Shown piece by piece: positions 3,495 to 55,450 of a stretch of DNA of 64,000 nt. The stretch comes from Candidatus Poribacteria bacterium. Lineage in GTDB: Bacteria > Poribacteria > WGA-4E > WGA-3G. The position numbers were made by a program, and so were the translations under genes. The stretch spans positions 35,669-99,668 of the forward strand of contig JAPOZO010000088.1 of assembly GCA_026706025.1 (NCBI GenBank), read 5' to 3'. How positions within the stretch are numbered: position 1 is the stretch's first letter; each line of letters opens with the position of its first letter. The notes under the pieces were generated by a model. That model was given only the letters and a program-made list of their open reading frames with translations. It searched no databases and was not told where the DNA came from.

Positions 3495-3521
3495 GTAGGC
3501 GCGGTTTGAAACCGCGCCTAC
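3495..3521. repeat. REP-like hairpin (GTAGGCGCGGTTT-G-AAACCGCGCCTAC) after the pfk stop; a possible terminator
   Basis: A perfect 13-bp inverted repeat that shares the GCGGTT...AACCGC core with the repeat family seen elsewhere in the window. Confidence 0.5.
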
Positions 3522-4100: not shown

Positions 4101-4322
4101 TGCTCAGTTGGGTTCACCGCATTCTACGCAATGGGGATTTACTAATTTTGGGTATAAATGCTTTTCCCCTCCCCGTAGTAAGAATCATAGATGTGCTGAT
4201 AAAGGGAAACCAGAGATGGAAAGGGTAATCGGTTTCTATAAACATTCTTAAAAAATGCCCAAAGAAATAAATCCTACAGGACTCAAGAGGCGTTTTGAGT
4301 GGATAAGGTTTGTGTCTAAAAT

Positions 4323-4385
4323 CCGGTGCGGTTGGGAAACCCCACCTACCGGATTTGGGACTGGAGGGGTTGGGAAACCCCACCA
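4323..4385. repeat. Two tandem REP-like hairpins (CCGGTGCGGTTGGGAAACCCCACCTACCGG and GGGGTTGGGAAACCCCACC)
   Basis: Stem-loops followed by a CTAC tail, in the same family as the 43718-44000 cluster. Confidence 0.5.
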
Positions 4386-6172: not shown

Positions 6173-6960
6173 GACATCCCCCATCGACCACCATCAACAT
6201 GTAGCGTCTGTCCCGTAATGTAAGAGGCATCGTCGCTAAGGAGGAAAGCGATGGCGGATGCGATCTCTTCGGGGCCGGCACGGCGTTTCATAATGCAGGA
6301 ATTGATCGGCGTTTCCTCTAATTCTTTCTTCCGAGCAGCAGGGTCGGGTGCTTTGCCGAAATGCATCTCCGTAACGATCCACCCTGGCGCAATCGCGTTG
6401 ACGCGGATGCCATATTCAACGAATTCATAAGCCATTGTTTTCGTGAGAGAGACCAATGCGGATTTAATTGCATCGTAGACCCACCCACCGGGCCTGCCGA
6501 GAAAACCGCCCTCTGATGAGAGATTGACGATAGCAGCACCTTCCTGTTTCAAAAGCGGTAAGAGATGTTGTGTGATCAGTACCCAACCTCGGAGACCGAT
6601 TTCGGTTTCGGGTTGCCAATTTCGGATCCATGCGCCGTCTTCTATTGTGCCAGAACGCGCGATAGCAGCGTTATTGACGAGGACATGAAGCGCGGAAAAC
6701 TTTTCGGTGACAGCACCTGCAGCGGCGATAACGCTTTCATCATCAGCAAGATCAACTTCTACAAAAAGTGCCTTCCCACCTGTTTCTTGGATTTCGGCGA
6801 CTGCCTTGTGCGCCATTTCGGCGTCGTTGTCAGCAATGATGACCTGTGCCCCTTCGGCTGCGAGACGGTTCGCCGTCGCCCTACCGATACCAGAAGCACC
6901 CCCGGTTATCAATGCGACTTTATCTGTAAAACGGATTGTTCCCCATGGATTTGTTTGCAT
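6160..6960 (-). CDS. SDR-family oxidoreductase
   Basis: TGGASGIGRA nucleotide-binding motif, NNAA, and a YxxxK-type active site region. Confidence 0.85.
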   Translation of the reverse strand: MQTNPWGTIRFTDKVALITGGASGIGRATANRLAAEGAQVIIADNDAEMAHKAVAEIQETGGKALFVEVDLADDESVIAAAGAVTEKFSALHVLVNNAAIARSGTIEDGAWIRNWQPETEIGLRGWVLITQHLLPLLKQEGAAIVNLSSEGGFLGRPGGWVYDAIKSALVSLTKTMAYEFVEYGIRVNAIAPGWIVTEMHFGKAPDPAARKKELEETPINSCIMKRRAGPEEIASAIAFLLSDDASYITGQTLHVDGGRWGMSVGR

Positions 6961-7072
6961 GTGTAGTTTCCTTTTATCTACCTGTCAGCGACCAGCCATC
7001 GGCTGTCAGAAATCGTGAGCAGTGCTCACTCCTACAATTGGGTTGTCAACAATTAGCGATCATCTGCCAAAA

Positions 7073-7122
7073 GTCGCGAGCACGGGGAAACACCCCAGCA
7101 AAAACACTCGCGCCTACAAGAG
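7073..7122. repeat. About 50-nt conserved structured motif (CGCGAGCACGGGGAAACACCCCAGCAAAAACACTCGCGCCTACAAGAG). A second copy lies at 52231..52282.
   Basis: Nested inverted repeats (CGCGAG/CTCGCG around GGGG-AAACA-CCCC) ending in CCTAC. The two copies are about 85% identical. Confidence 0.5.
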
Positions 7123-7136
7123 ATATAAGATTCTTT

Positions 7137-14305: not shown

Positions 14306-14469
14306 GTACCTGCTCCTTTATAGAGGTATTCAGTTGTCAGTTATCAGTTAAGAGGGTTCTGATTAAACCATATCCCTCTTGTAACTAACAACTGACAACT
14401 GACAACTACTGACAACTGAAAGGTTTTTCATGCCTCGCAGTGAGAGAAAACCGAACTGACAACTGACAA
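14306..14469. repeat. Composite intergenic element: CTGACAA heptamer arrays flanking a hairpin and a conserved 35-nt core (GAAAGGTTTTTCATGCCTCGCAGTGAGAGAAAACCG). A second copy lies at 54188..54376.
   Basis: The same architecture and a near-identical core occur at both loci. Both abut the stop codon of the upstream minus-strand gene. Confidence 0.55.
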
Positions 14470-15516
14470 CTATTCTTCTGGTTCTGTCGCCGCGGGTGAT
14501 TCCTCTGATTCCGATTCTGCAGCCGGTTCTTCGGGTGCTGCCTCTGGAATCCGGTCAATATAGGTTTTGACCTCGGCACGTTCGCGGAGTTTGCTGACCC
14601 ATTCCGTCATAAGGGCTTCGCGCTTTTCACGGTCAGCCTTTCTCACCACACTCTTGTGGACATCCTCGTCCTCAAAGGGTTTTTGGTATTCATCGCGAGC
14701 CTCATCCTTACGGAACATCATGAAGTATTTCTGACCTTGGACTTCGACTGCAATAACGTCATCGTGGACTTGACCGATCTCTGCAGAGAACGCTGCATCT
14801 AAGAAAGGTTCGGTTCCCGACGGATAAGAATCACGACTGAAGTAGTCGGTATCACCAGGAGAGGATGCATTCGCGCCAGGCCCGACGAGTTCGCCTCGGT
14901 CAGAGAGTTCTTGTGCGGCCTCGGCAATGTCTTTACCGCCTTTGATTTCTGCGGAAACTTCATCAGCCCGTTCCTTATTTATGAGGGTGATACACAAAAG
15001 CTTGACTTGCGCCGGACGGACGTATTCCGCTTTGTGCGCTTCATAGTACGCCATATAATCAGCGTCAGACAAGGTGAGCTTATCGTCAACTTCTTGGGTG
15101 GTAATTCTCTTAACCATCAACTCGTGAAGATAGTCCTGAACCTTCTTGAGAATTTCCGGGTCTTCGTTGAGCTTATGGTCGCGAGCGAGATTGAGAATTA
15201 AGCGGCTCTCCGCCATAAGGAGCATGTAAGTCTCCAACCCCTCTTTGTCCGCATACTGCCGCTGTTTGTATTCTGGCAGTTCGCTAATCTCCTGCATCAT
15301 TTCCTCAAGGGTGATGCGCTGTTTACCGTTCCACTCAAATTCAGCAATAACTGTTCCGTCGCCCCAACTATAAAAGACGGGATGTGTAGCAAGAATCCCG
15401 AGTAAAAGTAAAGGGACGACCGGCAGTCGAAGCTGGCAATCTATTCTACCCATGGATTGGGTAATTCTTGTGAGCATTTTCAATTCTAAACTCCTTTTCT
15501 TATCGCTATCAACCAT
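14470..15516 (-). CDS. SurA/PpiD-like periplasmic chaperone paralog with a degenerate parvulin and an acidic C-tail
   Basis: SurA N-domain-like region plus a single degenerate parvulin-like segment. It is a paralog of the gene at 15652..16620. Confidence 0.5.
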   Translation of the reverse strand: MVDSDKKRSLELKMLTRITQSMGRIDCQLRLPVVPLLLLGILATHPVFYSWGDGTVIAEFEWNGKQRITLEEMMQEISELPEYKQRQYADKEGLETYMLLMAESRLILNLARDHKLNEDPEILKKVQDYLHELMVKRITTQEVDDKLTLSDADYMAYYEAHKAEYVRPAQVKLLCITLINKERADEVSAEIKGGKDIAEAAQELSDRGELVGPGANASSPGDTDYFSRDSYPSGTEPFLDAAFSAEIGQVHDDVIAVEVQGQKYFMMFRKDEARDEYQKPFEDEDVHKSVVRKADREKREALMTEWVSKLRERAEVKTYIDRIPEAAPEEPAAESESEESPAATEPEE

Positions 15517-16620: not shown

Positions 16621-16732
16621 GTGCTAAAATTTCCTTTCGTCATAATCTGACAAATTTAGGATTTACGCAATTTTTTCCATGAGGTATCATGTTCCAAAAT
16701 CGGGGTTACAAACCCCTCCTACAAAGAAACTA

Positions 16733-40564: not shown

Positions 40565-40802
40565 AAATTCTAACCTCCGGTAGATAACGCTTTCTTATGC
40601 GTTTATCGTATCACGTACACGAAATAGATGCAATTCTTAGTTTTCAGTTTTCAGTTATCGGTTGTCAGTAACCGTCGCGATCGGGAGATCGTGCGTACAG
40701 GAAGAACGGAAGGATGGAAGGTGGGTGTAGAGGTTTGTGTCATGGAAAATTTGACAACAAACGCGAAATCCTACATAATAGAATAACAAAATCATCGGTA
40801 AG

Positions 40803-43646: not shown

Positions 43647-43717
43647 GGGGAGTCCTCAGATAGACAATAGGCGCGCTTGCATGAAGATTAAAAGATTAAT
43701 TCGGTAATTTCTTGGCA

Positions 43718-44000
43718 AAGTCCGGTGCGGTTGGGAAACCGCACCATAAGTGTCAATTTTAGAAAAAAGTTATGCCGTGAAGACCCCGGACCGGTAGATG
43801 CGGTTTGCAACCGCATCGGATACGACGCGAAAACCTTCAGACCCAGCGTTTACTAAACAGGGTTTCGACTAAACAAGAAAACGAAGACCCGGTTCGGATA
43901 ACTCCGGTTCGGTTGCAAACCGAACCTACCGGGCCTGGGGAAAGGTGCTAAATTGACACCTATGGTGCGGTTGGGAAACCGCACCTACCGGACCTGGGGA
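43718..44000. repeat. BIME-like cluster of four or five REP hairpins in alternating orientation
   Basis: Copies at about 43722-43746, 43786-43820, 43889-43940 and 43959-44000. Stems vary with compensatory changes (GTGCGGTT/AACCGCAC, GATGCGGTT/AACCGCATC, GGTTCGGTT/AACCGAACC). Each is followed by CTACCGG. The extended flank AAATTGACACYTATGG is shared with the copy at 46818. Confidence 0.65.
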
Positions 44001-44014
44001 TTACTTAAACTTTG

Positions 44015-45529
44015 TTAATGTGTGCTTTGGCGATTTGTGACCGGACACCATCGTGCCATCAGTAGATAATCAAACAGTGCTGATTCCGCTTCGGGGGTGT
44101 CAATGCGCTTCAGGGCGTGGATCGTGTTGTCGCGAACATAGCGATCTTCGTCCCAAAGGGCTTTCGCAAGTACCGGCACTGCGTCGTTTGCGGCGGGTCC
44201 AATCTGTGCCAATGCCAATGCTGCTTCAAAGCGTGCTTGTTTGTCGTCATCATCCGCAACCATATCGGTTAGGTGCGGTACTGCAGGCGCGGCGGTTGCC
44301 CCGAGACTTCCAAAAGCTTCAGCGAGATAACGGCGGACTTCAGCGCATTCGTCTTTCGTGCGTTCCATCAACGCTGGAATAGCGGCTTCAGCCGAATCAC
44401 CTATCTGTGCCAACGCATAGGCGGCTTCAATGCGAACGACATCCGCTGTGTGCTGTAATGCTTCACTCAAGGCGGGGACCGCAGGGGCACCGACTGCAGC
44501 GAGCGCGTAAGCTGCCATCCGTCGCGTGGGCCCGTTCTCATCACCTAACACCTCAATCAGTTGCGGAACAGACGGTTCGCCGATCGCGCCGAGTGCATAA
44601 GCGGCGTTCAAACGGACAGGTTCATAATCATCACGTAACGCTTGGATGAGATGCGGGACCCCCTCCGCAGCGGATTCACCTAACGCACCGAGTTCATCAG
44701 CGGCGCGGGAACGGACAAACGGATCGTCACCGCCTAACGCTGTGATAGAGTCTGTGAGGTTGCCATGGGTTGGTTGTGTTGCATCTCCGTTGGACTCGCC
44801 TGCCATCCAGTTCCAGATATGTCGCCACGTGCCTTGATGCGCTGGGGTCGCTGGGTTGATGTCTTCGGATGTCCACTGTGGATCCGTCACGTTCCACTCC
44901 GGTGCTTGGGGTGCGTCCATCCGGATGAATTGGAACTTCATCATATAGCGCGTTTTGTCTGTCTGGTTCGCCATGGCACGATGCCAGAGGTCAAAGTGGA
45001 TAATCGTTAGGGTACCAGCCTCGCCACTGAGTGCTAATTCACCATCGTTGGCTTCGGTGATTCGGGTGCTGTAATACTGCGTTCCCGGTAGGACTGCTGA
45101 GGGTCCAATTTCGAGCGGTGAATCCTGCGGGTAGTAGAACGCCATCGCCCAACGCGGGCAGTGGTGACGCACCTTCTGATACCCCCAGTAACTATCTTTA
45201 TGGAACCCCTGTCCATCACTGTGTGGACGGTTTTGATGCGGATGCCGATGGGAATGCATGACATAATTCTCGCCGAGAATACTTGTAAATGCGCCACGGA
45301 CAGCGGGATCCTCAAAAACCGCTTGCAGTTCAGGGACACGCGGCAAGATGTTGTTCCCTAAATTCCCCTCTTTTTCGGTGTATTCCTGCGTTTTACGATA
45401 AATAGTCTCATGAAAACTGCGTGGCAGATCGGTTTTTATGGTGAGATGTCCATTCACAATAAAATCGCGCATCTGCGCATCGGTCAGTTTGTTGCTGTCG
45501 CTTAACTGTGGGTTCGCTTGCATGATCAA
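44015..45529 (-). CDS. Phytanoyl-CoA dioxygenase (PhyH)-like domain fused to C-terminal PBS-lyase HEAT repeats
   Basis: N-terminal HxD...H 2OG-oxygenase pattern. C-terminal repeated units AAYALGAIGEPSVPQLIEVLGDEN. Confidence 0.6.
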   Translation of the reverse strand: MIMQANPQLSDSNKLTDAQMRDFIVNGHLTIKTDLPRSFHETIYRKTQEYTEKEGNLGNNILPRVPELQAVFEDPAVRGAFTSILGENYVMHSHRHPHQNRPHSDGQGFHKDSYWGYQKVRHHCPRWAMAFYYPQDSPLEIGPSAVLPGTQYYSTRITEANDGELALSGEAGTLTIIHFDLWHRAMANQTDKTRYMMKFQFIRMDAPQAPEWNVTDPQWTSEDINPATPAHQGTWRHIWNWMAGESNGDATQPTHGNLTDSITALGGDDPFVRSRAADELGALGESAAEGVPHLIQALRDDYEPVRLNAAYALGAIGEPSVPQLIEVLGDENGPTRRMAAYALAAVGAPAVPALSEALQHTADVVRIEAAYALAQIGDSAEAAIPALMERTKDECAEVRRYLAEAFGSLGATAAPAVPHLTDMVADDDDKQARFEAALALAQIGPAANDAVPVLAKALWDEDRYVRDNTIHALKRIDTPEAESALFDYLLMARWCPVTNRQSTH

Positions 45530-46983
45530 ATCTCCCTTTTAGGGGTTGTCAGTTATCAGTTTTCAGTCATCAGAGGAACGGCTTTCGATTTCCATCGGTT
45601 TCCGTCAGCAATCAGGACATTTACATCAGGATCCGGAGAACCTTCCTACAGGAAAACTAAATCGTGTTCCTCTATTTTACCTGACACGAATTTATTTGTC
45701 ATCTGTTTTATTATAGTTATCAGTTTTCAGTATTCCATGAAACAGAAATGTGATTCATCAAAGTACCTCTTAACCGAGTACTGAGTACTGAAAACTGCGT
45801 ACTATTTGGTCTAAACTGTGAATTATGTGATCCAAGGATTGGGGATAGCGGGTGACAATTAGGACGGGAAGGATGAAATAAGGTATTGTCTGAATCGCGG
45901 ATTATCGCGGATGACACGGATTTCGCGAATTTTAAGACATCTTTCTATCCAATGATCGTTTCTCTATCGCGGTTGAAACCCTTCTTACAAAAACATAAGA
46001 GCCGCCAATGTCAAAACTTTACACACCTTTGACTGATAGCCGACTGCTGATTGTTGACCGCCCTTTCCCAATTCCCTTCAAACGAGAAAGCACAGAGGCA
46101 TTCAGTTTTCCATTCTTTGCTCTAATTTTCACCGAGACCCAGTAGGTACAGTTTTGCGGTGTACCATAGGTGTCTATTTAGGAAAAAACCACATCGTCCC
46201 GTAGGTGTTTTTGCTTGGGGTGTTTTTGATAGGGTATTTCTGCGTATTGCTTGGGGTCTTTGATAGGGGTATTTGATAGGGTGTTTCTGCGGATTTCTGC
46301 GGATTTCCCCAAGGTTGAACGGGGTTAAGAAAGCAGATGTTGGTCTGCCAATACCCTCGAATCCAACCTGTCGTCCTATACAGCCAAAAACGCAGTGAAA
46401 CCCAACTTCAGACCCACAGGTGCCCATAAACCGCAAAGGTGTTGGGTTTCTCTCGGTTTTCTGTTTGGCGTGCCATCTCTGGAGAAGGCTTAGGCTTGGG
46501 TTAGTTTCCAGCATTTTAGAAATATCCGTTCAACCCAACCTACAGGAGAATACTAACGCTTTACACTTTTGACTTCTGAGCTGCGATTTCCCTGATTGCC
46601 ATGATTCCCATGATAAGACAACCCATCACAAGAAAATGAATACTGAAAACCCAGGCATGACGACTCAGCAGTTCCGCAGGAACCTCCTCTCTGTAGAAAC
46701 TTCAACACCACAATCAGCATCTTATTTTTCCTCAGATACCTTATTACAAAAATCACAAAAATCACAGAAATCACAGTTCAGACTTAATAAGACGGGAATG
46801 GCACGAAAAATCCCTAAATTGACACTTATGGTGCGGTTTCCTAACCGTACCGGTTTACAATGTCTCATTAACCCTAATATCCACTATAAGTAGAGTATTG
46901 GGGTTGGAAACCCTCCTACAAAAACCGGGAGTCGTTTCGGATTATAACTTGATTTATGAGCGGAAGTAACGTATAATTCAATC
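45530..46983. other. 1.45-kb non-coding region filled with degenerate repeats (REP variants, CAGT heptamers, GGGGTSTTTGATAGGG units, CACAAAAAT x3)
   Basis: No convincing ORF. The candidate ORFs here have junk-like composition. Confidence 0.5.
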
Positions 46984-48828: not shown

Positions 48829-49104
48829 TCAAACGACGATTGTCTGGGGATCCGACGTTACCTCACCGACAGCAGGGACTTCAATGCGTCTGGTGCAGGC
48901 ACCACAGAGCGCGTAGTAACGAACTGAATCCTCAGAAAGATCAATAACACCTGCGACGGCGCGCTGGAGTGCCTCGTACTGTGTCCGGGTCAGGTGCGCT
49001 TCAAACACACTGTATTGGACGCGGGTGCCGAACCCTTTGAGGACTTTGGCGAGTTGACCGCGTCGCCGGTCATCCGGAATATCATAAGAAATAACATAGA
49101 ACAT
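48829..49104 (-). CDS. cas2: CRISPR-associated endoribonuclease Cas2 (start at the internal MFYVISYDI; the listed ORF has a spurious 60-aa upstream extension)
   Basis: MFYVISYDIPDDRRRGQLAKVLKGFGTRVQYSVFE...DSVRYYALC is a classic Cas2 sequence. Confidence 0.8.
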   Translation of the reverse strand: MFYVISYDIPDDRRRGQLAKVLKGFGTRVQYSVFEAHLTRTQYEALQRAVAGVIDLSEDSVRYYALCGACTRRIEVPAVGEVTSDPQTIVV

Positions 49105-49110
49105 TGAAAA

Positions 49111-49335
49111 TTGCCTTTTATGGAATCCATTATGCCTGAATTTATCAGTTCCCCAATATTTTTGATAATTGCAGTGATACTCGCCGTTTTTCTCGTGATT
49201 GCTATTGTGAAGGGCGCGATTCGTCTCTTTATCTGGATCGCTATTATTGCCGTGATTCTCCTCGGGGTCGGTATTCTGACACAAGAGGAGATGCGCAATT
49301 GGTTTGAGAATCTCCTCAAGACAGTAACGGGATAG
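49111..49335 (+). CDS. Small two-TM membrane protein (hypothetical). The start is uncertain (TTG at 49111, ATG at 49120 or 49132).
   Basis: Two clear hydrophobic helices. It sits between cas2 and the cas6-like gene on the opposite strand. Confidence 0.35.
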   Translation: MPFMESIMPEFISSPIFLIIAVILAVFLVIAIVKGAIRLFIWIAIIAVILLGVGILTQEEMRNWFENLLKTVTG

Positions 49336-49345
49336 ACGTTGCGAC

Positions 49346-49828
49346 TCAGTTTATCGGCGGCGGGTTGTCTCCCAATCCACAGATGCGGTACTGTCCAAAC
49401 CCAAACGCCGTATGATGCCCGATGTGCAGATACTCACCAAGATAGATAAACGGTAGAAACGGCTCTAATTCCCCTGAAAAATGGATTTTCCCAATAAACC
49501 CACCCATCGGCACGAATTTCTCCGCTCGGTCAGAGTACCGATCCTTCCTAAGCCAATTCAAGCGAGAATCATGACTGACAGCAGTGGAAGCCGCAATTAA
49601 GCCGTGAGCATCCACATCCAAATCCTCGCCACAATGGAAATAACTCAGGAACCGGATCCGCCGCAGCAAATTGCGGATGAGGTGTTCAAACGTTAGTTTG
49701 CCTGTCCACTTGCCATCGACTTTGATACTGGTAGGTGTGATAAATTCCAGTTCAATCGTATCGGTGGCATGCGGCGCAGCGGGCATCACATCTGCCAACC
49801 CAAGCATCAGTCCATCATCCGTCAGCAT
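49346..49828 (-). CDS. cas6: Cas6-like protein, probably N-terminally truncated or degenerate. The frame stays open without an ATG up to about 49930.
   Basis: C-terminal glycine-rich loop LHIGHHTAFGFGQYRI matches the Cas6 signature (sGiG..t.GfG). An upstream GGFIGKIHFSG segment is also present. Confidence 0.5.
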   Translation of the reverse strand: MLTDDGLMLGLADVMPAAPHATDTIELEFITPTSIKVDGKWTGKLTFEHLIRNLLRRIRFLSYFHCGEDLDVDAHGLIAASTAVSHDSRLNWLRKDRYSDRAEKFVPMGGFIGKIHFSGELEPFLPFIYLGEYLHIGHHTAFGFGQYRICGLGDNPPPIN

Positions 49829-50246: not shown

Positions 50247-51293
50247 ATGAGAAATTGTGAAACACGCTTGCTTGTGATTTTATTGTGCTGTGTGTGTATC
50301 TGCGGTTGTGAAAGGGGGCAGCACGTCGTTAAACCCCCCATAGCAGTTGACTTAATACCCGATCCCAATTTAGCGGCTGCTGTGCGTGAGGCACTCGGTT
50401 TGACAACAGATGCCCCACTGACGGCAGAGGTGTTGCAGAACCTGGGAACACTTAGGGCTCATAACCTCCAGATTGTAGATCTCACGGGTTTAGAATACGC
50501 AGTGAATCTGACAAAACTGCACCTGACCGAGAACCAGATATCTGATGTTTCACCACTGGAAAATCTCAAAAACCTGACAGAACTGTACCTCGCTGGGAAC
50601 CAGTTATCCGATATTTCACCACTATTCGATATTTCACCGCTGGAAAACCTCACAAACTTGACAGAACTGGGCCTCGGCGGGAACCAGTTATCCGATATTT
50701 CACTACTGGAAAATCTCACAAACTTGACAGAACTGGGCCTCGCTGGGAACCAGTTATCCGATATTTCACCATTGGAAAATCTCACAAATCTAAGAGGACT
50801 GCACCTCGGTGGGAACCAGTTATCCGATATTTCACCGCTGGAAAATCTCACAAATCTAAGACAACTGGGCCTCGGCGGGAACCAGTTATCCGATATTTCA
50901 CCACTGGAAAATCTCACAAATCTAAGACAACTGCTCCTGAACGAGAACCAGTTATCCGATATTTCACCACTGGAGAATCTCACAAATCTAAGAGGACTGC
51001 ACCTCGGCGGGAACCAGTTATCCGATATTTCACTACTGGAAAATCTCACAAACTTGACAGAACTGGGCCTCGGTGGGAACCAGTTATCCGATATTTCACC
51101 GCTGGAAAATCTCACAAATCTGATAAATCTGTGGCTGTCCTATAACCAGATATCGGACATCGTCCCCCTCGCGGCGAATAGAGGCTTGGGCGACAGGGAC
51201 ACCCTCTGGTTGAAAGGCAACCCTTTGGACGAGGCTGCCATTCGTACACATATTCCTACACTCCAAGAGAGAGGTGTTAGGGTAGACCTGTAA
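50247..51293 (+). CDS. Internalin-type leucine-rich-repeat protein (about 12 x 22-aa LRRs), a paralog of the LRR module in the gene at 25367..27844
   Basis: Repeats LENLTNLTELGLGGNQLSDISP. The pre-LRR motif DPNLAAAVREALGL is shared with the metzincin-LRR gene. N-terminal hydrophobic signal. Confidence 0.8.
   Translation: MRNCETRLLVILLCCVCICGCERGQHVVKPPIAVDLIPDPNLAAAVREALGLTTDAPLTAEVLQNLGTLRAHNLQIVDLTGLEYAVNLTKLHLTENQISDVSPLENLKNLTELYLAGNQLSDISPLFDISPLENLTNLTELGLGGNQLSDISLLENLTNLTELGLAGNQLSDISPLENLTNLRGLHLGGNQLSDISPLENLTNLRQLGLGGNQLSDISPLENLTNLRQLLLNENQLSDISPLENLTNLRGLHLGGNQLSDISLLENLTNLTELGLGGNQLSDISPLENLTNLINLWLSYNQISDIVPLAANRGLGDRDTLWLKGNPLDEAAIRTHIPTLQERGVRVDL
50520..51150. repeat. Near-identical 66-bp coding tandem repeats (LRR units)
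   Basis: cactggaaaatctcacaaatctaaga...gggaaccagttatccgatatttcac is repeated with few substitutions. Confidence 0.7.
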
Positions 51294-51411
51294 AAAAAAT
51301 ATAGAAGGTGAATATTTAGGGTTGGAAGTAAAGGGAGAGAATGATGGTATCAGGGGTACAGACCCCTCTACAAAAGCGTCGAAATAGTTACATTTATAGA
51401 GGTTATATAAG

Positions 51412-52230: not shown

Positions 52231-52282
52231 GATTGCGAGCGCGGGAAGACACCCCAGCAAAAACACTGGCGCCTACGGGAAG
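52231..52282. repeat. Second copy of the ~50-nt structured motif (GCGAGCGCGGGAAGACACCCCAGCAAAAACACTGGCGCCTACGGGAAG)
   Basis: About 85% identical to 7073..7122. Located between convergent gene ends. Confidence 0.5.
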
Positions 52283-54187: not shown

Positions 54188-54376
54188 GGGTTAATAGTTA
54201 TCAGTCTTTATAGTTATCAGTTAAAAGAGGGTTGGGACAATTCAAGAGGTCTCTTTACTGAAAACTGAAAGATTTTTCATGCCTCGCAGTGAGAGAAAAT
54301 CGCTCTGATAACTGAAAACCACTGACCACTGAAAGATTTTTTTCGGAGAAAAAATCGTACTGACAACTGACAACTA
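54188..54376. repeat. Second copy of the composite heptamer, hairpin and 35-nt core element (GAAAGATTTTTCATGCCTCGCAGTGAGAGAAAATCG)
   Basis: Same architecture as 14306..14469. It ends in CTGACAACTGACAACTATT, which overlaps the stop codon of the upstream gene. Confidence 0.55.
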
Positions 54377-55450
54377 TTAAAACAGTTGATAGAAATTATT
54401 TGCGTTCTCGTGCAAAATCTTACGTGTGAGTGAACCCGGCAATTCGGAGGGCAGTGCCTCGTTGGGTGTGTTGAACTGCCAATGTGGGTAATCCGTTGAA
54501 AACATTAGCATTTCATCGGATTCCAATTGACCGATGATCTGAAGTAGCTGCTCCGGTGTCGGCGGTGCATCGACAGGTTGTAGCGTAAACCGAATATGCT
54601 TTCGCATGTATTCCGACGGCGGATGTTTGACCCACGGTGTATTGTTTCGGAGGCCGCGCCACTCTTTATCAATCCGCCACATCATTGCCGGTAGCCATGT
54701 AAAACCGCTCTCAATGAGGACAACACGTAGTTCTGGGAACTGGTCGAAAATCCCTTCCGCAACGAGACTAATTACCTGTGCTTGGAAGACCTGCGTCATT
54801 CCAGCATATTCCTCTAAAAATGTTGATGGCCAGCCTGTCGGTGAAGGTTGGGTACCGGGTGCCCCGCCGTACTGAATACCGATAGCGAGATTATGCCGGA
54901 CTGCCGCTTCATAAATCGGATGGTAGAGTCGGTTCCCGTAGGGTGTCCGAGAACGGACAGGTAGTATCACCTGAACAAACCCTGGATGCTCACCGACGCG
55001 TTCGATTTCCTTTGCGGCGAGTTCTGGAATCTGGCTTGGGATCACAAGCGAAGCGCGGAGTCGAGGCTCTGGATCGAGCCAATGTTCTATCTGCCAATCA
55101 TTTACTGCGTGTGCAATCGCCGCGGCGAGGTCGGGGTTATGAATGCTTTGCACCCGGTAGGCACAATTAAGAATACCGTATTCAAGATTCCAGCCATCAA
55201 GTAATTGCGCTCGGATATGCGAAAGATCAATGTCCCATGGGGAAACAGCATCCGGATGCGTCGTTAGCGGGGCACCGCGTGGATAATCGCTCGCATCGGG
55301 ACCCCTAAAGCCAGAGTTCTGACAATAATCGCACCAGAAATCAGACATGTAAGGATAGAGCGTCTGCAAAGACGGGACTTCGTTATGAATGTCGCAGTCA
55401 ATTGCTTTCACCCCTGCCTCTACGAAATGTGGAGTCTCCCAACTTTCCAT
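54377..55450 (-). CDS. Amidohydrolase_2 family protein (paralog). Start reassigned to the internal Met at 55450.
   Basis: AIDCDIHNEVP and FSTDYPHWQFN motifs. The upstream 47 codons of the listed ORF overlap the tRNA and read as tRNA antisense (VEVTGSNPVRP). Confidence 0.6.
   Translation of the reverse strand: MESWETPHFVEAGVKAIDCDIHNEVPSLQTLYPYMSDFWCDYCQNSGFRGPDASDYPRGAPLTTHPDAVSPWDIDLSHIRAQLLDGWNLEYGILNCAYRVQSIHNPDLAAAIAHAVNDWQIEHWLDPEPRLRASLVIPSQIPELAAKEIERVGEHPGFVQVILPVRSRTPYGNRLYHPIYEAAVRHNLAIGIQYGGAPGTQPSPTGWPSTFLEEYAGMTQVFQAQVISLVAEGIFDQFPELRVVLIESGFTWLPAMMWRIDKEWRGLRNNTPWVKHPPSEYMRKHIRFTLQPVDAPPTPEQLLQIIGQLESDEMLMFSTDYPHWQFNTPNEALPSELPGSLTRKILHENANNFYQLF

Follow-up and report, generated by a model that had tools for sequence, protein, structure and literature searches.

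What are the G+C-rich hairpins that crowd a short intergenic spacer in the genome of a Candidatus Poribacteria bacterium, and how did they come to lie there? The stretch analyzed here, hereafter called the window, comprises 64,000 nt of contig JAPOZO010000088.1. Its spacer between the start of an amidohydrolase gene (43646) and the stop of a HEAT/PhyH gene (44015) carries four copies of the hairpin within 43718-44000. An earlier note, made from the letters alone, had compared these and further copies to the repetitive extragenic palindromes (REPs) of Escherichia coli, the substrates of REP-associated tyrosine transposases (RAYTs). We find that the window hairpins form a true repeat family, beyond chance. 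Most probably they are GTAG-type REPs of Candidatus Poribacteria that would have been spread in trans by a RAYT encoded elsewhere and recombined into mosaics. They represent a new host group for a known REP/RAYT system and not a new kind of element.

Sites at which a hairpin is followed by CTAC, with a gap of at most 2 nt, number 14 in the window compared to a mean of 3.3 in shuffled sequence, and the exact motif GCGGTTNNNNAACCGC occurs twice where 0.01 occurrences are expected. The main type, termed type-1, is built from a 9-bp stem (GGTGCGGTT/AACCGCACC), a loop of 3-4 nt and the tail TACCGG(N)CCTGGGG, and reads in full (A/T)TCCGG-TGCGGTT-loop(3-4)-AACCGCA-CCTACCGG-NCCTGGGG. On the opposite strand it becomes CCGGTAG-hairpin-CGGA, i.e., a hairpin with a 5' GTAG head. 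Such a head, together with a stem of 6-13 bp and a short loop, is what sets apart the REPs of the GTAG super-family (PMC3733652). It supports the likeness to the E. coli REP layout that the earlier note had seen in the hairpin-plus-CTAC arrangement. A covariance model trained on the copies of related genomes and then run on the window identified nine type-1 copies in 64 kb. Five of them are full copies (4321-4360+, 22886-22925-, 43783-43821-, 43902-43940+ and 43960-43999+), while four are symmetric or consist of the hairpin without the CTACCGG tail (3495-3521, 4363-4384, 43724-43745 and 46830-46851); a very weak copy was additionally recorded at 46131-46169. An unpaired GTAG is present at one end of the hairpin in 5/5 full window copies. 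Every clear copy in the window is intergenic, and CCTAC in general is enriched between genes, with 31 of its 80 occurrences in intergenic sequence, which makes up 16% of the window. A hairpin is present at every position listed in the earlier note; these do not form one uniform family, however, but pool at least two subfamilies. An Rfam search of the window at gathering thresholds returned nothing but two tRNAs.

To follow the family beyond the window, a genome collection was scanned with the pattern GGTTN{3,4}AACCNNNYCTACCGG, in which the 5' arm of the stem was left free. The scan yielded at least 120 stretches, and all figures on hosts, assemblies and arms given here are among the matches listed. 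Candidatus Poribacteria account for 97/120 stretches, from 61 assemblies; the hairpin core is therefore common to much of this sponge-symbiont phylum, and members of the family exist well outside the window. In the unfiltered scan matches the free 5' arm mirrors the 3' arm (GTGC/GCAC 62, GTTC/GAAC 18, GCGC/GCGC 10, GGGC/GCCC 5 and GCAC/GTGC 3), and cases with non-complementary arms are mostly chance matches in other phyla. Across 72 distinct copies, 97% of the cells are paired, and double-sided stem changes amount to 28 in comparison to 5.5 in shuffles, with none of 500 shuffles reaching as high. When the partner was slid by 1-3 columns, paired cells fell to 32-47%. G-T pairs also occur in stems across the alignment. 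Since the arms are complementary and the double-sided changes exceed those in shuffles, the compensatory variation described in the earlier note holds for the family as a whole, over more than 100 copies. Its statement that stem changes always compensate does not extend to the window itself, where the copy at 4321 shows a C-C mismatch, the copy at 22886 has an irregular stem and the hairpin at 46830 holds one G-T pair.

The family is extragenic beyond the window, too. Open frames with a minimum of 150 codons make up 80% of the bases but contain only 12.6% of the copies. Genomes from outside the Poribacteria contribute one copy per locus, mostly a different palindrome. For the window, those homologues of two of its proteins that bear names are labelled Candidatus Poribacteria, and its gene domains, i.e., HEAT/PhyH, GFO_IDH_MocA, FIST and leucine-rich repeats (LRR), have a planctomycete-like look. 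A perfect 28-nt palindrome, GTAGGGGCGGTTCGCGAACCGCCCCTAC, was encountered in L052, L071, L074 and L077, loci of metagenome-assembled genomes whose labels are Dehalococcoidia, Nitrospirales, proteobacterium and unclassified bacterium. This palindrome shares the CGGTT..AACCG core and the GTAG tags with the poribacterial REP and occurs as one copy per 8-kb slice.

A tblastn search of the fetched loci with E. coli RayT detected open reading frames in L070 (6963-7484) and L088 (2012-2485). Their products match Pfam Y1_Tnp and score 126.8 and 128.4 bits against the NCBIfam RAYT model NF047646 REP_Tyr_transpos (cut-off 80 bits). Against the IS200 model they reach only 53.4 and 46.3 bits, below the cut-off of 55 bits, and no TnpB was found among the gene calls next to RAYT in the loci checked, L135 included; an IS200/IS605 insertion sequence was rejected on these grounds. 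In the four related genomes described below, the RAYTs are HUH/Tyr-type proteins of 157-173 aa. Six residues are invariant in the RAYT alignment (E. coli RayT numbering), namely H59 and H61, which in the E. coli enzyme are the HUH histidines, the DNA contacts K82 and Q95, the catalytic tyrosine Y115, and N119. RAYT homologues form 336 clusters, and all named ones are labelled Poribacteria.

In four related genomes (L070, L124, L125 and L135) the RAYT gene is flanked by REPs, with the GTAG heads pointing outward in three of them. In L070 a reverse REP, CCCCAGGCCGGTAG-hairpin-CGGATAC, stands on one side of the gene, and a forward REP, GTCCGG-hairpin-CTACCGGGCCTGGGG, stands on the other; type-1 REPs with outward heads flank RAYT on the 5.24-Mb chromosome of L124 (gene at L124:2501-2977) and on the 5.33-Mb chromosome of L135, and in L125 REPs stand on either side of the gene. 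The copies next to RAYT in L124 and L135 were reached via the protein and not via the DNA pattern, and they carry GTAG nonetheless (CCGGTAG-hairpin). The HUH Y1 transposase that the earlier note had envisaged thus exists, as RAYT-model-passing proteins flanked by these hairpins, in four relatives, and is presumed for the genome of the window itself. Because the L135 chromosome combines a REP-flanked RAYT with an amidohydrolase 92% identical to that of the window, a close relative, the closest complete one, holds the full system. Two further arrangements were observed in these loci: the RAYT gene of L088 has repeats of REP-bearing units, which vary in length (~55-195 nt), to its left and to its right (1150-2650), and in L109 a tandem REP array (~6380-6590) repeats a 35-nt unit, hairpin plus CTACCGGGCTGGAGCTAA, head to tail.

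A second RAYT clade (clade B), represented by L127 and ~52% identical to the first, is flanked by another REP, GAGCGAGC..GCTCGCTC-CTACAAAAG. The window contains two elements with a CCTACAA tail (7015-7037 and 7076-7119, +). The 42-nt unit 7076-7117 recurs with 90% identity at 52235-52276 (direct-repeat family D20), in a distant intergenic region (GCGAGCRCGGG.A.ACACCCCAGCAAAAACACT.GCGCCTAC). Window positions 7097-7123 match the sequence that flanks the L127 gene of this clade, which suggests that the CCTACAA-tailed elements belong to this second system.

How, then, did the cluster at 43.7-44.0 kb arise? The same two genes, coding for the amidohydrolase and the HEAT/PhyH protein, are adjacent in related genomes, where the spacer measures 4-155 nt in comparison to 368 nt in the window. 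It is 4 nt long, without any hairpin, in L137 (92% protein identity to the window), holds a single symmetric REP, GTAGGCGCGGTTTGGAAGCGCGCCTAC, within 69 nt in L128/L129 (95%), a REP of the same kind within 110 nt in L131/L132 (89%), and two hairpins within 155 nt in L130 (93%). The window retains the gene-proximal half of the L128 REP with nearly unchanged flanking bases. This remnant, ATAG-GCGCGCTT-GC (43667..43680, +), lies by the start codon of the amidohydrolase and aligns with the gene-proximal half of the L128/L129 REP; all remaining spacer sequence starts directly after the 5' arm of the older REP. The alignment is most simply read as an insertion of ~300 nt, in the window lineage, into the loop of a REP that was already in place.

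The inserted sequence begins with an 'a' module (43681..43723, +; ATGAAGATTAA-N6-TTAATTCGGTAAT...AAGTCC), the left end of a carrier resembling a miniature inverted-repeat transposable element (MITE), to which 58 similar ends were found in poribacterial loci. It is followed by a type-1 hairpin, GGTGCGGTT-GGGA-AACCGCACC, that has no CTACCGG tail (43724..43745, +; 28.1 bits in the covariance model, model positions 5-25 only), and by the c' module ATAAGTGTCAATTTTAG (43746..43762, -). The latter is the inverted partner of the c module CTAAATTGACACCTAT (43948..43963, +), the two belonging to inverted repeat I1 with 36-nt arms that are 86% complementary. Enclosed by them are two full type-1 REPs in inverted orientation. 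The left one (43783..43821, -; 46.8 bits, E 3e-11) has its GTAG head leftward and the 'd' flank CGGATACGACGCGAAAACCTTCAGAC on its right; the right one (43902..43940, +), with the stem variant GGTTCGGTT/AACCGAACC, is the best covariance-model match of the window (56.9 bits, E 4e-14). Their arms (inverted repeat I2, 43784-43820 and 43903-43939) are 84% complementary with 82 nt between, and the 80-nt spacer at 43822..43901 takes the position that is occupied by the RAYT gene in L124/L070. A further full type-1 REP (43960..43999, +; hairpin 43964-43985, tail TACCGGACCTGGGG; 53 bits, E 5e-13) overlaps the c module, and a truncated a' module, ATTAC..TTAAACTTTG, closes the cluster (44000..44014, +), abutting the HEAT/PhyH stop codon at 44015-44017; full a' ends in L040/L105 read ATTACCGATTTAAATACTTAAACTTCAT. 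The orientation of the four type-1 copies in the covariance model is +,-,+,+, and not strictly alternating as had been stated. As single-stranded DNA, the entire cluster is predicted to fold into one long nested hairpin of -76.6 kcal/mol (shuffles -45.9 kcal/mol, z = -8). TTGACA in the c module was considered as a promoter -35 box and rejected: there is no -10 box at the right spacing, and a promoter scan gave no excess.

The arms of the inner REP doublet are identical in type to those flanking RAYT, with GTAG heads outward and no gene between them. Because of this match, and because 43723-43837 is colinear with the sequence upstream of the RAYT gene in L124 (75% over 115 nt), the cluster looks like a RAYT unit minus its gene. 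The mosaic would consist of an older single REP split by ~300 nt of nested repeat modules, in which a MITE-like carrier tipped by a REP would be outermost, an inverted pair of c modules lies inside it, and the head-out REP doublet would be innermost.

The E. coli enzyme offers a mechanism for such events. TnpA-REP (RAYT) reads the GTAG head base by base, and in vitro it binds, cleaves at CT and carries out strand transfer (PMC3479197). By analogy, a RAYT encoded elsewhere in the poribacterial genome would bind the folded hairpin with its GTAG on single-stranded DNA, e.g., at the replication fork, cut it, form a 5'-phosphotyrosine link and rejoin it to another 3'-OH (PMC3479197). Such cutting and rejoining of strands would spread the repeats in trans and also recombine them into mosaics. 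Several points weigh against this account. By tblastn, neither E. coli RayT nor the poribacterial RAYTs (the latter at E<=1) matched anything in the 64-kb window, in agreement with the earlier note, so that the enzyme would have to be encoded elsewhere. RAYT-driven REP transposition in vivo has not been demonstrated even for E. coli (PMC3479197). The mosaic junctions in the cluster do not fall at CT dinucleotides. That the GGTT/AACC/CTACCGG columns of the alignment are invariant, and likewise the GTAG tag in the scan set, is dictated by the search pattern. Finally, most sampled copies are singletons in longer palindromic carriers with terminal inverted repeats of their own, and for this reason part of the spread may come from another transposase.

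This last point leads to the alternative that survives best, namely that MITE-like elements, which have terminal inverted repeats of their own, carry the copies chiefly as cargo and are mobilized by another transposase, one directed at REP loops, with RAYT playing a minor part in the building of clusters such as this one. We regard this as possible but clearly the less probable account. In other poribacterial loci the hairpin forms the tip of several longer units. The 'a...a'' carrier is a non-coding, MITE-like unit of ~120-130 nt with 28-nt inverted ends (ATGAAGATTAA-N6-TTCGGTAAT), whose 'a' left flank pairs only with an a' right flank (17/17); a 'b...b'' unit occurs as well. Many of the 58 carrier ends begin 1-2 nt after a REP 5' arm, as does the window carrier, whose end at 43681 follows directly on the 5' arm of the older REP. 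Their payloads vary between type-1 REP, clade-B REP and unrelated hairpins (L005, L070, L121 and others), and in L005 one carrier sits precisely in the loop of another's hairpin. Insertion sequences that target REPs include IS1397 and ISKpn1. A precedent is also ISPpu9, which is inserted into REPs (PMC8450116) and, like the carriers at 43680/43681 and in L005, lies inside a REP hairpin. Unlike such insertion sequences, however, the poribacterial inserts are ~120-nt non-coding units that themselves bear REPs, with no transposase known for them, and none was found between carrier ends in the sampled loci. Moreover, the RAYT of L124 is flanked by bare REPs with 'd' flanks and not by carrier inverted repeats, and the hairpin core with its GTAG is far better conserved between species than the carriers are. 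Cargo transport by carriers and spread by RAYT can both hold.

A related idea, which we put forward tentatively and consider rather doubtful, is that in Poribacteria small non-coding elements bearing a REP integrate or recombine specifically at the REP loop, so that clusters nest within themselves, REP in REP. The c module (TAAATTGACRCYTAT) occurs 67 times in the loci, mostly in inverted pairs that enclose 100-1500 nt of related sequence, and also builds minimal c-hairpin-c' units. The composites (hairpin-c' ... c-hairpin) and the minimal units could be integrated and empty forms, respectively, like attL/attR versus attP. If this were true and catalyzed by RAYT, the clusters would document within a genome the strand transfer by RAYT that is so far known only from in vitro work.

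The position of the copies relative to genes leads one to ask if the hairpins are instead kept for a role in RNA or chromatin, as stabilizers of 3' ends, terminators or sites for nucleoid proteins, with their spread being secondary. Several copies do lie just 3' of genes, between convergent or co-directional neighbours (3495, 4321, 16702, 43.7 kb and 51352), some REP is present in the same spacer in 4/5 relatives, and the G-T pairs in the stems have been taken by Di Nocera et al. as a hint of RNA function (PMC3733652). On the other hand, copies are also hosted by divergent promoter regions (22886 and 46.1-46.9 kb), and with its 4-nt spacer devoid of a hairpin, L137 indicates that the element is dispensable there. 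As an intrinsic terminator the hairpin was rejected, as its CTACCGG tail lacks a T-run and a terminator scan gave 1 site versus 1.2 expected, not at a REP. We therefore judge such a role to be unlikely as the reason for the family; a secondary action on RNA is conceivable but unsupported.

It is similarly improbable that the large cluster is ancestral and was lost in the relatives by recombination between hairpins, rather than being a recent insertion. Direct hairpin repeats would permit such deletion, and the right flank of the L128 REP, GGGATTAAGTTTTG, resembles the truncated a' module of the window. Yet L128 (95%) and L131 (89% protein identity) have the same simple symmetric REP, GTAGGCGCGGTT...CGCGCCTAC, a third relative has no REP at all, and the window still keeps one half of the symmetric REP; loss in the relatives is thus less likely than insertion in the window lineage. 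That the hairpins are CRISPR-like substrates of a nearby orphan Cas6 is very improbable: Cas6 enzymes do recognize repeat hairpins, and a 160-aa Cas6-domain gene with a Cas2 gene lies 5 kb from the cluster, but tandem- and direct-repeat searches of the window revealed no regularly spaced repeat-spacer array, the copies are scattered over 48 kb and whole genomes, and the family follows RAYT genes and not cas genes.

Taking the hairpins as GTAG-type REPs with a RAYT partner, they can be compared to three described systems. With the REP/BIME (bacterial interspersed mosaic element) and RayT system of E. coli, the 'REPtron', they share the extragenic hairpin, the conserved 5' GTAG and the mixing of REP clusters with other motifs, as well as a single-gene HUH/Tyr transposase of ~160 aa that is flanked by its own REPs and keeps the six catalytic and DNA-contact residues. 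The poribacterial stem and loop sequences, in contrast, are unrelated to those of E. coli, and the stem is perfect without an A-bulge; the protein is 20-28% identical to E. coli RayT and has no inhibitory C-terminal tail with E161. The comparison of the cluster with BIMEs made in the earlier note is borne out insofar as the cluster is a mosaic. It differs in being nested, with modules specific to Poribacteria in place of alternating REP/iREP units with set linkers, and most copies elsewhere are singletons.

Similarity also extends to the REPIN-RAYT system of Pseudomonas (Bertels and Rainey 2011, PMC3116915; PMC5581495), in which inverted REP doublets fold into a long hairpin. Such a doublet is found at 43783-43940, with the I2 arms and spacing given above and a fold z of -8. 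As in Pseudomonas, doublet arms of the same type flank RAYT, RAYT appears to be a conserved lineage gene, and several RAYT clades exist, to each of which a REP class of its own belongs (here L127). Unlike REPINs, poribacterial doublets are rare and the hairpins are mostly single at carrier tips: the 97 loci hold 133 full copies, of which only 14 close pairs could be made out, 10 in tandem and 4 head-out, in a small sample ascertained by pattern. Closest in features are the GTAG REPs of Di Nocera et al. 2013 (PMC3733652), reported from eight phyla, with Planctomycetes (R. baltica) and O. terrae among the hosts. These agree in stem, loop, GTAG tag and complementary stem subfamilies, in having several families per genome and in the REPs that stand on either side of RAYT genes. 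That set of 24 families does not include Poribacteria as a host, and the likeness is one of these features. Our literature search for work linking Poribacteria with REPs or RAYTs found nothing relevant.

To our knowledge, REP/RAYT studies to date have been almost wholly on Proteobacteria. The same design is now seen in an uncultivated sponge-symbiont phylum, where at least 61 species-level genomes preserve the hairpin core, and this conservation fits the view of REP/RAYT systems as long-lived residents of their lineages. In practical terms, the motif and the covariance model can be used to flag poribacterial contigs; the repeats explain part of the repeat-driven fragmentation of poribacterial assemblies and point to intergenic positions at which closely related strains diverge. 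Nested clusters, together with intact 'before' states in relatives, provide natural records of mosaic building.

The remaining copies in the window are as follows. At 3495..3521 lies a symmetric REP, GTAG-GCGCGGTT-TGA-AACCGCGC-CTAC, which scores on both strands (30.9 and 30 bits) and has convergent genes on either side. At 4321..4384 (+), the full type-1 REP with the C-C mismatch (4321-4360, 43.9 bits) is followed by a hairpin-only copy (4363-4384, 13.1 bits), and the full copy with the irregular stem (22886..22925, -; 45.2 bits) lies in a divergent intergenic region. A second composite at 46131..46851 (-) has the design of the 43.7-kb cluster in reverse: a degenerate REP with c' (46131-46182) and c with a hairpin (46813-46851) form inverted repeat I3, whose 20-nt arms are 90% complementary with 630 nt between. 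The second subfamily is represented by GGGGTT-ACA-AACCCC followed by TCCTACAA at 16702..16724 (+), by similar copies at 46900-46921 and 51352-51375, and by a degenerate copy at 45966-45990 with the tail CTTAC, not CTAC. Other CCTAC-tailed hairpins, with differing stems, are located at 7015, 7076, 15548, 29994, 32750, 52235 and 55867.

Apart from the hairpins, the window contains intergenic runs of the heptamer AACTGAC (complement CAGTTnTCAGTT) at 14320-14474, 40634-40673, 45544-45573, 45710-45735 and 54256-54378, including a 64-nt unit common to 14407-14470 and 54256-54319 (89%); positions 54328-54374 match DNA that lies upstream of the L127 RAYT of clade B (87% over 47 nt). The orphan CRISPR pair at 48829-49828 (-) consists of the short Cas6-domain protein, 160 aa long and encoded at 49346-49828, and of Cas2, for which Pfam aligns residues 61-133 of a 151-aa open reading frame (48829-49284); no cas1 gene was found alongside them in the window. 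Two genes are made up of 66-nt (22-residue) repeats, one at 25367-27844 and one at 50247-51293, which by Pfam encodes a leucine-rich-repeat protein; eukaryote-like repeat proteins of this kind fit a sponge symbiont.

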